A stretch of 64,000 nt of DNA from Nitrospira sp. (GTDB lineage: Bacteria > Nitrospirota > Nitrospiria > Nitrospirales > Nitrospiraceae). The translations under genes and the position numbers were made by a program. Location: contig DATFDJ010000194.1 of NCBI GenBank assembly GCA_035252115.1, positions 16,704-80,703 of the forward strand, written 5' to 3'. Each line of letters begins with the position of its first letter. Within the stretch, counting starts at the first letter, position 1. Shown piece by piece: positions 35,044-38,323 of the stretch. The notes under the pieces are model-generated. The model was not told the origin of the DNA, did no database searches, and saw nothing but the letters and a program-made list of their open reading frames with translations.

Positions 35044-36759
35044 TTATTCAGCGAAAGCCGTCAGATTCACTTCGAACGCCGCAATCGGCACGGTGATCTG
35101 CCAGCGCTCTAACACCTCGGGGTGAACTTCCCCAATCACTCCCACTTCGGCGCCGCTTTCCATGATAATCCGACCCGCCCGTCCTTCCAGAAAGCTGGGG
35201 TGCTGGACTGGCTCCATGCTGTACGTCCGGTCGAGATAGTAGAACAACGCATCCAGACAGGAATGGACTTCCGAAAAATGAGCATCGGCGTGGGCGATCA
35301 TCGCGGCCGCAACCATGGCCGTCCGTGAGCCGAGTTCATGCGCAGGATCGGGCCGTGCCACTTCGCCGGCCTCGAAGAGCCGGTGGGGATAGAAGGCGCG
35401 GCTGGAAGCAGTCTCGACACGAAGCAACGAGGGCAACAGCCATTGCCGGAGCGCCGAGAAGTGCTGGGACATGACATTGTCCACTTCGACGACGCGTCCC
35501 CACTCGGTTCCGTCGAGCCGCATGGCTTCGCATAACAATTGCGGAGAACTGAGGATATTCGAGATGATTTCCTGAAACCCCATGCCGACCAACAAATCCC
35601 GCACCCGGTCGGAGAACGTTTCAACGCCGGACAGCCCGCCCACGGTAAATTGAGACGGCATCACCGGACGAAATTCCGAAAATCCGCGGCTGATGGCGAC
35701 ATCCTCGACGATATCCATGGCATGCATGAAATCCTGGCGGTAGAGCGGAAGGCGTACGGTGATGTTGTTCTTCGTGGCATTGACAACATAACCGTACGCC
35801 GTCAGTGCCTGACTGACCTGTCCGCTATCCAGTTCTTGGCCGAGCGCCCGCTCGATTGTCGCAAGTGGTACGGTTCGATCCTTTCCCAGATCCTGAGGGG
35901 TGACGACGGTCTGCCCCAAGGCGGTCTTCGTGGGATAGACTACTTGAACCGGCTCGATGGCGGCGCCTCGATCGGCAAGATTGGCCGCCAGAATGTTGAG
36001 CGTGAGGATGACCATCGACAGATCGGTGCCCGTCACTTCGACAAAGAGCGCATCATCCCCGATCCGCACTTCGCCGACGTCGCGACTGTTGATGATCGGG
36101 GGAAAAGAAAGGACCCGTCCTTTGGCATCCCGTAGGAAGGGAACCCGGCTGTGACCGGTCAGAATCCCGCCGAACTCGAGTCCTTTCGGGTGGACGAGCA
36201 AAATCTCGCTCAAGGTCATCACCGTATTCATCCCCAGCGGAGTGAATTTTGCGCTGTCCGCCTTCACGGCTTCGTACGCGACGGGGAACGCGATCTCCGA
36301 AAGCCGGTAGAGTCCTATCGACACGGTCCGGCGCTTGCGGCCGAAAATGTCGGCGAGCTTTTCTTGCGTTTGAATCAACTGAGTCAGGCCTTCTTCAGTC
36401 ACACGATAGCCGGTCGCGGCGCAGGCCGCGACATAGGGGCGGACCGTTTCGAGACCAGGGGCGACCGTGACTTGTTTCGTCGGAGGCTTGGGGAAGGATT
36501 GGAACCCATACGAGGCGGGGACGCCTGTTCGTTTGATGCGGATCTGCCGTGCAATACCCTCGCAACACCAGAGGTCGGGGCGGTTGCTGTCTTGCAGCTC
36601 GATCCGCATCTCTCCGGTTTCCTGATTGTGTCCTTTCAGTTCACCTTTGACCAGCATGAACCACTCTTCCAATTGCCCAAGCGACACGGCGGAAATCTTC
36701 CTGTCGGGACCCGCCAGGAGCGCCTCGAGATCCTGCTTATAGATCGTGATGGTCGGCAT
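35044..36759 (-). CDS. pheT: Phenylalanine-tRNA ligase beta subunit, archaeal/eukaryal type
   Basis: 571 aa, starts MPTITI; NRPDLW and FPPIINS motifs; no OB-fold B2 insert and no FDX-ACB (B8) domain seen. Confidence 0.92.
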   Translation of the reverse strand: MPTITIYKQDLEALLAGPDRKISAVSLGQLEEWFMLVKGELKGHNQETGEMRIELQDSNRPDLWCCEGIARQIRIKRTGVPASYGFQSFPKPPTKQVTVAPGLETVRPYVAACAATGYRVTEEGLTQLIQTQEKLADIFGRKRRTVSIGLYRLSEIAFPVAYEAVKADSAKFTPLGMNTVMTLSEILLVHPKGLEFGGILTGHSRVPFLRDAKGRVLSFPPIINSRDVGEVRIGDDALFVEVTGTDLSMVILTLNILAANLADRGAAIEPVQVVYPTKTALGQTVVTPQDLGKDRTVPLATIERALGQELDSGQVSQALTAYGYVVNATKNNITVRLPLYRQDFMHAMDIVEDVAISRGFSEFRPVMPSQFTVGGLSGVETFSDRVRDLLVGMGFQEIISNILSSPQLLCEAMRLDGTEWGRVVEVDNVMSQHFSALRQWLLPSLLRVETASSRAFYPHRLFEAGEVARPDPAHELGSRTAMVAAAMIAHADAHFSEVHSCLDALFYYLDRTYSMEPVQHPSFLEGRAGRIIMESGAEVGVIGEVHPEVLERWQITVPIAAFEVNLTAFAE

Positions 36760-36763
36760 GGGA

Positions 36764-38323
36764 TCAGACGGAGCCCTTCGTCGATCGGACCAGTTCCAGA
36801 TTGTCGGTAAAGAGTTCGCGGATGTCATGGATACCGAGTGCGACCATCGCCATGCGGTCGAGCCCCAACCCCCATGCAATGACGGGCACGGTGACTCCGA
36901 GCGGAAGAGTGACTTCCGGCCGGAACAGACCGGCGCCGCCCAGTTCCATCCAGCCAAGGCGCGGGTGTCGTACGTGCAGTTCCACGGACGGCTCCGTAAA
37001 CGGGAAATACGCCGGCAGAAACTTCACTTCCTTGGCCTGCGCGACTTCACGCGCAAAGAGATTCAGCAATCCCAGCAGCGTACGGAAGTTGATGTCGTCA
37101 CCGAGTACGATTCCCTCGACCTGAAAGAAATCGGTCGCGTGGGTGGCATCGACCTGGTCATATCGGAAACACCGGGCGATCGAAAAGTATTTTCCGGGAA
37201 TGGACGGGTTCGACGCGAGAGTATGGGCGGACACCGCTGTCCCCTGACTCCTGAGAATCAGCCGGCTCGCCCGCTCGACATCAAAACGGTAACCCCATCC
37301 GGTGGACCCTGTTTCACCGCCATGCTCGTGTACCTGCCTGACACGCGAAAGAAACGGCTCCGCGATGCGCGCCGCCTGCTTCGGTTCTTTCACAAAATAT
37401 ACATCATGAATATCGCGGGCCGGGTGAAACTGCGGCATGAACAGCGCGTCCATGTCCCAGAATTCGGTCTCGATGAGCGGACCGCGCATCTCTTGAAAGC
37501 CCATGCTCACGAGTTTCGTCTTGACGGTGTCCAGAAATTCCCGATAGGGATGGCGTCTCCCCGGCGCAATGCGCGGGGCCCGCAAACTGATGGTGTACTT
37601 CCGGAAATGTTTGGTCCTCCATGTCCCGTCTTTCAGCAACTCCGGCGTCAGTTGGGACACTTCCTCCACGCCGCCTGCGCGAGAGAGTTGCCGAACAGCA
37701 TCGGCCCCAGCCTCTGTGAGCTTCAGAAGCCTTATCACGCGATCATCCACCCGGAACGGCTCCTTGGTGTTACCGCGTTTGACGGCATAGGTGTGGATCA
37801 CCCGCTGCTGCGCATCGGAAAAAGTAGACAGATCGCGGGGACCGTCGTGAAGCTGCTGCAACAGACCTCGGATCGTTTCAGCCGTGCGGCTCTGCCGTCC
37901 TGTTGATTCCAGACAACCCCCTTGGATGATCAGGAGCGCGCCCTCTTTCTTCAGGCAGCCGATGGCCCCGCTCACATCGGAAGGATCCAGTCCTTCACGC
38001 GATCGGATGTCCTCAATGGTCAGGCGCTTGCCGGTCGTGGCGGCTTCACGGGCTGCCGACAAAACCCGTTCGATAGGCGAAGACTTTTCGAAATACTGTT
38101 CGCCGATTTTCGTCAACGAGGCGATCGGCGTGACAATTTCTTTGTCGATGATCAGCAGCGATTTAGCAAGAAGCCATTCGACTGCCATGCTGATCTGGGA
38201 CGGTTCCAGTCCGGCGGATTGTGACAGTTGTCCTGTATCGAGCACGACATCGCTCGATGCAAAGGCCGACAAAACTTTGATTTCCAGGGGATGGAGGCTG
38301 TCGATGAGGGAAGAGATATTCAC
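36764..38323 (-). CDS. pheS: Phenylalanine-tRNA ligase alpha subunit, archaeal/eukaryal type
   Basis: 519 aa with long N-terminal extension; HPARD, FPFTEPS and AWGLGLDR motifs. Confidence 0.95.
   Translation of the reverse strand: MNISSLIDSLHPLEIKVLSAFASSDVVLDTGQLSQSAGLEPSQISMAVEWLLAKSLLIIDKEIVTPIASLTKIGEQYFEKSSPIERVLSAAREAATTGKRLTIEDIRSREGLDPSDVSGAIGCLKKEGALLIIQGGCLESTGRQSRTAETIRGLLQQLHDGPRDLSTFSDAQQRVIHTYAVKRGNTKEPFRVDDRVIRLLKLTEAGADAVRQLSRAGGVEEVSQLTPELLKDGTWRTKHFRKYTISLRAPRIAPGRRHPYREFLDTVKTKLVSMGFQEMRGPLIETEFWDMDALFMPQFHPARDIHDVYFVKEPKQAARIAEPFLSRVRQVHEHGGETGSTGWGYRFDVERASRLILRSQGTAVSAHTLASNPSIPGKYFSIARCFRYDQVDATHATDFFQVEGIVLGDDINFRTLLGLLNLFAREVAQAKEVKFLPAYFPFTEPSVELHVRHPRLGWMELGGAGLFRPEVTLPLGVTVPVIAWGLGLDRMAMVALGIHDIRELFTDNLELVRSTKGSV

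Follow-up and report, generated by a model that had tools for sequence, protein, structure and literature searches.

Why does a bacterial chromosome carry, beside rplT and on the opposite strand, a phenylalanyl-tRNA synthetase (PheRS) of the archaeal/eukaryal type? The question is raised by 64,000 nucleotides of DNA from Nitrospira sp. (GenBank assembly GCA_035252115.1, contig DATFDJ010000194.1, positions 16,704 to 80,703), referred to below as the window, in which pheS (36764..38323, minus strand) and pheT (35044..36759, minus strand) encode the alpha and beta subunits of such an enzyme. The best explanation, which we hold with considerable confidence, is that this archaeal-type enzyme is the sole PheRS of the organism and the product of an ancient replacement of the bacterial pheST genes, that it occupies the address of the displaced pair on the opposite strand, and that the bacterial tRNA-Phe was kept.

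Identity of the pheS-pheT pair

The two minus-strand open reading frames are separated by only 4 nt. pheS starts with GTG and encodes a protein of 519 amino acids, which scores 569.5 bits against NF003210 (PRK04172; cut-off 350), residues 9-517 being matched to model positions 3-493 of 496. The class II PheRS catalytic core, PF01409, covers residues 243-514 (1.8e-82; model positions 2-245 of 246), and ahead of it lies an N-terminal extension of about 220 amino acids, which is homologous to the extension of archaeal PheS, since the NF003210 match runs through it. The top matches of alpha in the PDB are eukaryotic cytosolic alpha chains (7e-69 and 1e-65), bacterial alpha chains following at about 1e-32. 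pheT encodes 571 amino acids from an ATG at 36759. Its frame is open further upstream, where a TTG at 36957 would give 637 amino acids, but the start is set at the ATG by the N-terminus MPTI, which is conserved in all relatives, and by the match to TIGR00471 (pheT_arch), which begins at model position 1. That match reaches 448.9 bits (cut-off 282.65; residues 1-569, model positions 1-550 of 551); among the control genomes the cut-off of the model was passed only in the four archaea. Against the bacterial model TIGR00472 (pheT_bact) beta scores 109 bits, below the cut-off of 402.65, and only B5 and the catalytic-like module are matched (model positions 410-691).

The same picture emerges from structural comparisons. 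In the PDB search, residues 1-360 of beta align with the editing fragment of the Pyrococcus horikoshii beta subunit (2cxi; 4e-62) and the entire chain aligns with human cytosolic PheRS beta (1e-53), whereas bacterial beta chains cover only residues ~300-566, close to the end of the protein at 571. An AlphaFold (AF2) model built on 56 sequences has a predicted local distance difference test (pLDDT) score of 94.3. The whole of it can be superposed on the beta chain of human cytosolic PheRS (3l4g_B; template modelling (TM) scores 0.80/0.78), and it fits 2cxi_A with a TM score, by target, of 0.95 and a root-mean-square deviation of 1.6 A. The model covers just ~0.41 of bacterial beta chains, so that neither a B2 OB domain nor a B8 anticodon-binding domain is present. 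Beta thus consists of B1, the B3/4 editing domain, B5 and B6/7, without B2 (OB/EMAP-like) and B8. The initial annotation had called the pair an archaeal/eukaryal-type PheRS with a long N-terminal extension in alpha, with which curated models, PDB alignments and coordinates agree, and had described beta as lacking the bacterial OB insert and the C-terminal anticodon-binding domain, which the PDB alignments and the superpositions of the model bear out. It had also named what would speak for the opposite, namely B2 and B8 domains and subunits clustering with canonical bacterial PheRS; these domains are absent, and beta is far from bacterial PheT.

Beta residues L209, S218, N224, E241 and T243 align with P. 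horikoshii L202, S211, N217, D234 and T236, which we take to be the PheRS beta editing residues of Sasaki et al. 2006. All five positions are invariant in an alignment of eight Nitrospirota sequences (A1); in a 56-row alignment (A2), S218 and N224 are invariant and T243 is nearly so, L209 and E241 being in neither group. The Pfam model B3_4 (PF03483) gives no match on the beta editing domain or on most precomputed relatives. We consider this miss (35884-36549, minus strand; beta residues ~70-290) a gap in model sensitivity, as the domain is evident from the 2cxi alignment and the AF2 model. The GC content of pheS and pheT is the same as that of the flanking DNA, and standard annotation models already name the archaeal-type genes correctly.

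The genome assembly to which the window belongs comprises 4.2 Mb in 242 contigs and is 93.9% complete. Neither a bacterial-type pheT nor a second pheS was found in it; there is a single pheS, and the only other TIGR00472 match in the genome is an OB tRNA-binding domain in a frame of 681 amino acids. This genome-wide search, which the initial annotation had proposed as a check, supports xenologous displacement. Because the pair is the only PheRS and its domains are conserved, its products are predicted to assemble as an (alpha-beta)2 enzyme, to charge tRNA-Phe and to edit Tyr-tRNA-Phe, and we infer that the pair encodes the sole phenylalanyl-tRNA synthetase of the cell. Of its parts, alpha supplies the class II catalytic core and the long N-terminal extension, and beta supplies B1, the B3/4 domain, by which Tyr-tRNA-Phe is removed in editing, B5 and the catalytic-like module B6/7. 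In archaeal-type PheRS, the N-terminal extension of alpha replaces the tRNA contacts made in bacteria by the coiled coil of alpha and by B8 of beta. PheS-related ligases with other roles do exist, and weak matches to two of them, NF051887 SrmL and SepRS, were recorded, so that one might think of a paralogue with a different role or of a contig of archaeal origin that contaminates a bacterial genome bin. Yet both proteins exceed the equivalog cut-offs for true PheRS subunits and no other PheRS genes are present, and the contig that carries the pair has bacterial genes on either side of it, as is also the case in 76 further Nitrospira assemblies and in closed genomes; we regard this explanation as refuted and hardly credible.

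Distribution, origin and the cognate tRNA

Archaeal-type PheRS is not peculiar to this genome but an ancient, lineage-wide trait of about two thirds of the Nitrospirota. The best 80 matching loci in a collection of species genomes are all labelled Nitrospira, Nitrospiraceae or Nitrospirota. Among 41 relatives from four families of the order, 38 encode the archaeal type above the cut-off and none the bacterial type. Extending the comparison to 201 Nitrospirota genomes, we found archaeal-type PheRS in 129 (families f1, f2, f5, f6, f7, f10, f11, f14 and f15) and bacterial-type PheRS in 64 (families f8, f9, f12, f13 and f16-f28); the two lists of families are disjoint, no family containing both types. 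Xenologous displacement, as suggested in the initial annotation, is thus supported by the lack of a bacterial pheST in the genome, by the mutual exclusion of the two types across the 201 genomes and by the grouping of beta beside archaeal sequences. Within the library that could be searched in full text, no paper on archaeal-type PheRS in Nitrospirota or Leptospirillum was found.

How often the switch took place was assessed on an RpoB tree (LG+G4) of 48 Nitrospirota genomes, rooted with two outgroup genomes (G235 and G236). Families f1-f7, f10, f14 and f15 form one clade with a Shimodaira-Hasegawa-like approximate likelihood ratio (SH-aLRT) support of 99. A number of observations weigh against a single ancient switch: the base of the tree is unresolved, with f11 falling there together with bacterial-type lineages, the best tree requires three switches, and the outgroup genomes carry the archaeal type themselves. 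The supported branches, however, force only one switch, and a tree in which all archaeal-type rows are held together was not rejected by the approximately unbiased (AU) test (p 0.225). One ancient switch therefore fits the data, although two or three are also possible.

The outgroup might even be taken to mean that the archaeal type is ancestral in Nitrospirota, perhaps in a broader set of bacterial phyla, and that Thermodesulfovibrio-like families regained the bacterial type later; G235 and G236, which root the tree from outside the sample, possess the archaeal type only, and at its base the phylum tree forms a polytomy. Several basal branches are nevertheless occupied by bacterial-type families, the archaeal-type families form a single derived clade with support 99, and bacterial-type families keep the canonical co-directional pheS-pheT after rplT that most bacteria have, so that a regain would need to have restored the exact operon position. 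We therefore consider an archaeal-type ancestor of the phylum quite improbable.

Two observations on individual families were made along with this survey. The bacterial-type PheT of a large Thermodesulfovibrio-like clade (L119-L125, L219-L233) is only ~700 amino acids long, is matched by TIGR00472 from model position ~156 and seems to be without the B2 OB part, while f8 and f12 have the full form of 800 amino acids. Two f15 genomes (G068 and G059; L136 and L180) have rpoB frames of 1724-1728 amino acids that match the RpoB model only from position 264-272, their N-terminal region being unusual.

For the origin of the enzyme, the best 150 beta relatives were taken from a search of 1.84 billion representatives. 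Three parts of the beta tree could be given names: P0035 is related to Spirochaeta thermophila, S. africana, Alkalispirochaeta and Treponemataceae; P0012 to metagenome-assembled genomes (MAGs) labelled Planctomycetota, Myxococcota or Deltaproteobacteria, and also to Nitrospira; P0036 to Aenigmarchaeota, Woesearchaeota and Nanoarchaeia. In a beta tree of 67 sequences calculated under a mixture model, a branch with support 97 splits 23 archaeal-side rows from 44 rows. On the side of the 44 are the Nitrospirota without exception, the spirochaetes and the MAGs labelled Planctomycetota or Myxococcota, in addition to further sequences. Most of the latter that were looked up have bacterial gene contexts (SecA, HU, S20, Mfd or bacterial ProRS), and the contig of one, P0033, is too short to judge. 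The Nitrospirota rows, except the long-branched f15, group with support 81. An alpha tree agrees with the beta tree in its resolved parts. Because spirochaetes and Nitrospirota share the 44-row side of the branch with support 97, their enzymes are members of a single clade of archaeal-type PheRS in bacteria. The identity of beta to an Aenigmarchaeota-type representative is 41%, and to the bacterial-type beta of Nitrospirota it is ~22-25%, over part of the length only. The phylogeny of both subunits, another check named in the initial annotation, thus places beta beside archaeal sequences together with the other bacterial archaeal-type rows, with alpha in agreement among bacteria. It counts against reading more from these trees that the archaeal sampling for beta consisted of the 150 representatives closest to the query and that the alpha tree contained bacterial sequences only; as the archaeal sequences were restricted to those most similar to the query, we leave the donor lineage unassigned.

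The change of enzyme was not accompanied by a corresponding change of its substrate. The tRNA-Phe(GAA) of the genome has U20, U59, U60 and A73. In 11 further genomes, four with the bacterial-type and seven with the archaeal-type enzyme, position 20 of tRNA-Phe is U, or C in f2 and f4, and U59, A73 and the anticodon GAA are found under both enzyme types. E. coli PheRS uses U20 and U59 as determinants, and the yeast and Aeropyrum pernix enzymes use G20 (PMC9976931). A switch of tRNA-Phe to G20 was found neither in the genome itself nor in the 11 others. The tRNA-Phe has stayed bacterial through the enzyme swap, and the shared determinants G34, A35, A36 and A73 are presumably enough for the archaeal-type enzyme.

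ARAGORN in addition calls as tRNA-Phe a 92-nt gene of the same genome outside the window (contig C187:63581-63672, minus strand; L236:1001-1092). This gene resembles tRNA-Ser(CGA): its acceptor stem reads GGAGAGG, its variable arm is long and it has G73, but its anticodon loop is CA-GAA-CA (A33, C37); it reaches 32.8 bits on the Rfam tRNA model. No fewer than five further Nitrospira genomes, one of them with three copies, have paralogues with 84-86% identity and other odd loops (TCT, irregular 'TAT'). A normal tRNA-Ser(CGA) is located apart from the odd gene, on contig C127.

The inverted position beside rplT

On the plus strand of the window, thrS (31849-33777; TIGR00418), infC (33800-34297; TIGR00168), rpmI (34327-34521; read from the sequence) and rplT (34607-34975; TIGR01032) form a string (31849-34975) that is convergent with pheT. 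Directly upstream of pheS, on the minus strand, lie fmt (40461-41402; TIGR00460), rsmB (39013-40443; TIGR00563) and rpe (38333-39013; TIGR01163), with gaps of 17, -1 and 9 nt along the series. The initial annotation had described this arrangement, with the PheRS genes beside rplT on the opposite strand and following fmt-rsmB-rpe, and the coordinates agree with it. On account of these spacings, fmt-rsmB-rpe-pheS-pheT are likely to form a five-gene operon, bounded upstream by a divergent tRNA-Met(CAT) gene (41491..41567, plus strand); a tRNA-Val(GAC) gene (31696..31770, plus strand) is found just upstream of thrS, and both were identified by ARAGORN and Rfam. Between 29000 and 43000, an Rfam scan (E 0.1) gave these two tRNAs and nothing else, neither a leader nor a T-box RNA.

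The 68-nt gap between the stop codons of rplT and pheT contains a hairpin (35013..35043) with 11-nt arms and a 9-nt loop, whose folding energy is -27.9 kcal/mol on the plus strand, where UUUAUU follows, and -34.4 kcal/mol on the minus strand (z -4.35). It is plausible that this hairpin acts as a two-way terminator for rplT and pheT. It was recognised by eye and by folding; a simple terminator scan did not flag it because it is not followed by a strong T run. Further away in the window (27324-30247, minus strand), we noted a gene directly downstream of an Rrf2-family regulator that encodes an 826-amino-acid NirA/sulfite-reductase-like protein with a C-terminal YedF/TusA-like part.

The inverted arrangement is not restricted to this contig. 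rplT is convergent with pheT in all 76 Nitrospira loci with enough downstream sequence (median gap 113 bp), and rpe is found upstream of pheS on the same strand in 73 Nitrospira loci. At the level of families, the convergent junction is present in 7 out of 10 with the archaeal type (f1, f2, f3, f5, f7, f14 and f15), and rpe precedes pheS on the same strand in f1, f2, f3, f4, f10 and f14. Bacterial-type families (f9, f12, f13, f16, f17, f19-f23, f25-f28) show thrS-infC-rpmI-rplT-pheS-pheT all on one strand. The synteny comparison across Nitrospirota called for in the initial annotation thus came out as a convergent junction in archaeal-type families and a co-directional rplT-pheS-pheT series in bacterial-type ones. 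Within the archaeal-type clade f7 branches off first, and as it has the junction, the junction is about as old as the swap. Given that the junction is present at all 76 loci and in 7 of 10 families, the basal one among them, the location at the same place but on the other strand is ancestral to the clade. In S. thermophila, in Myxococcota- and Planctomycetes-labelled MAGs and in G235 and G236, pheS and pheT are adjacent with no rplT nearby; an archaeal-type pair at the end of the vacated string is therefore found only in Nitrospirota.

Most probably, then, the archaeal-type pair came to bacteria from Archaea long ago, replaced the bacterial pheST in the ancestor of a large Nitrospirota clade, to which Nitrospira with its order and class and a number of other families belong, and has since been inherited mostly vertically. 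In this ancestor, the new pair already bordered thrS-infC-rpmI-rplT at its 3' end, where the bacterial pair had been, but faced the other way and closed the fmt-rsmB-rpe operon. As the most likely route we suggest that the foreign genes inserted next to the resident pheST, within the terminator zone that separates the two converging operons, and that the resident genes were deleted afterwards. Only tentatively, but as a reasonable possibility, we propose jointly that the inverted pair is a fossil of the swap, left by landing behind the resident genes and their subsequent deletion, and that a single transfer from an archaeon to a bacterium was followed by spread between phyla, to Spirochaetota, Nitrospirota and the Planctomycetota- and Myxococcota-labelled lineages, with replacement at the same locus only in Nitrospirota.

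Several findings count against this explanation. Families f4, f10 and f11 show no rplT linkage within 9 kb. When the gaps between rplT and pheT at 21 archaeal-type loci were searched with tblastn (E up to 10), no remnants of bacterial pheS or pheT were found and nothing but the archaeal-type genes matched; the step of landing next door followed by loss is therefore without a direct trace. Nor was any right-hand flank common to bacterial-type and archaeal-type loci, the sole match being a domain-level one to a histidine kinase. The gene concerned, located between rplT and pheT in f7, encodes a hybrid histidine kinase, for which orthology was rejected because it matches only via common GAF/PAS/HATPase domains. 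Separately, an rpe/fmt operon convergent with the bacterial pheT was looked for in 24 bacterial-type loci and was absent from all of them. In one bacterial-type family (f27; L229), fmt and rpe are found divergently upstream of thrS, i.e. on the other side of the thrS string.

The displacement could accordingly be real and the adjacency to rplT secondary: the pair might have joined fmt-rsmB-rpe elsewhere and have been juxtaposed later by rearrangement or by loss of the bacterial pair, the neighbourhood being coincidental. Linkage of pheS to rpe is no less widespread than that of the pair to rplT, and it persists in f4 and f10, which lack the latter; the missing relics and the missing shared flank agree with a secondary adjacency, as do the lack of rplT linkage in other phyla with an archaeal-type enzyme and the position of fmt and rpe across the thrS string in f27. 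However, the junction occurs in 7 of 10 families including f7 and must for this reason be about as old as the swap, and we estimate that a random landing would hit the end of the vacated string with odds of the order of one in a few thousand genes. A secondary origin of the adjacency is a serious alternative, although the less probable one. As to the initial suggestion that the old neighbourhood had been kept or re-created in inverted form, its inversion is confirmed and goes back to the ancestor of the archaeal-type clade, and the data fit both a kept neighbourhood (insertion next to the resident genes, which were lost afterwards) and a re-created one (juxtaposition at a later time).

Significance and comparison with known systems

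As a clean shared-derived trait, archaeal-type PheRS characterises much of the Nitrospirota; it is a lineage marker rather than a new kind of system, and the classical 'spirochaete' archaeal-type PheRS proves to be part of a wider bacterial clade. There are practical consequences, as marker-gene sets that use a bacterial pheT model will always miss PheRS in these lineages (we take TIGR00472 to be part of the bac120 set) and phylogenies based on pheS will misplace them. That an archaeal-type PheRS is able to serve a tRNA-Phe with the bacterial U20/U59 bears on the ease with which synthetases are transferred between domains. Inhibitors tuned to bacterial PheRS may be predicted to spare nitrite-oxidising Nitrospira. 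Finally, the position at the same address but on the opposite strand makes the locus a tidy case study of the replacement of an essential gene.

The closest precedent is the archaeal-type PheRS of Spirochaetia (Spirochaeta, Treponema, Borrelia), which has been explained by one transfer from an archaeon to a bacterium, with the donor placed near Thermococcales (Andam and Gogarten 2011; PMC3191353). The subunits of the two groups are of like size (alpha ~513-528, beta ~514-573 amino acids), both subunits were swapped together with no bacterial form left, a clade is marked by the trait in each case, and the spirochaete sequences lie on the same side as Nitrospirota of the beta-tree branch that separates the archaeal sequences. 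The host phylum differs, as does the location, the S. thermophila genes being away from rplT and the Nitrospira pair at the end of the vacated thrS-rplT string on the opposite strand. In contrast to the donor suggested for spirochaetes, the nearest named archaeal rows in our tree are DPANN, within a limited archaeal sampling.

With the PheRS of Archaea and the eukaryotic cytosol (2cxi; human 3l4g), the Nitrospira enzyme shares its architecture, with a long alpha N-terminus and a beta subunit that has B3/4 and lacks B2 and B8, and the editing-site residues are conserved in the Nitrospira beta. It differs in being encoded in a bacterium, by adjacent pheS and pheT genes in a likely bacterial operon, and in facing a tRNA-Phe with U20 and not the G20 used in yeast and A. 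pernix (PMC9976931).

Compared with the canonical thrS-infC-rpmI-rplT-pheS-pheT string, the first four genes of the Nitrospira locus are in the same order and PheRS genes come next along the chromosome, but these belong to the other type and are encoded on the opposite strand, in what is probably a different transcription unit. The locus can also be viewed in the light of xenologous gene displacement in situ, a concept that reportedly goes back to Omelchenko and co-workers in 2003. As in such displacements, a foreign equivalent occupies the place of the displaced gene in a conserved string: pheT is found at the position of the displaced pair after rplT, and the resident pair is absent. Classical cases, however, keep strand and operon, whereas neither was kept here, the pair following rpe after the 9-nt gap; the Nitrospira xenologue is inverted, and the operon membership of the resident gene was therefore not taken over.

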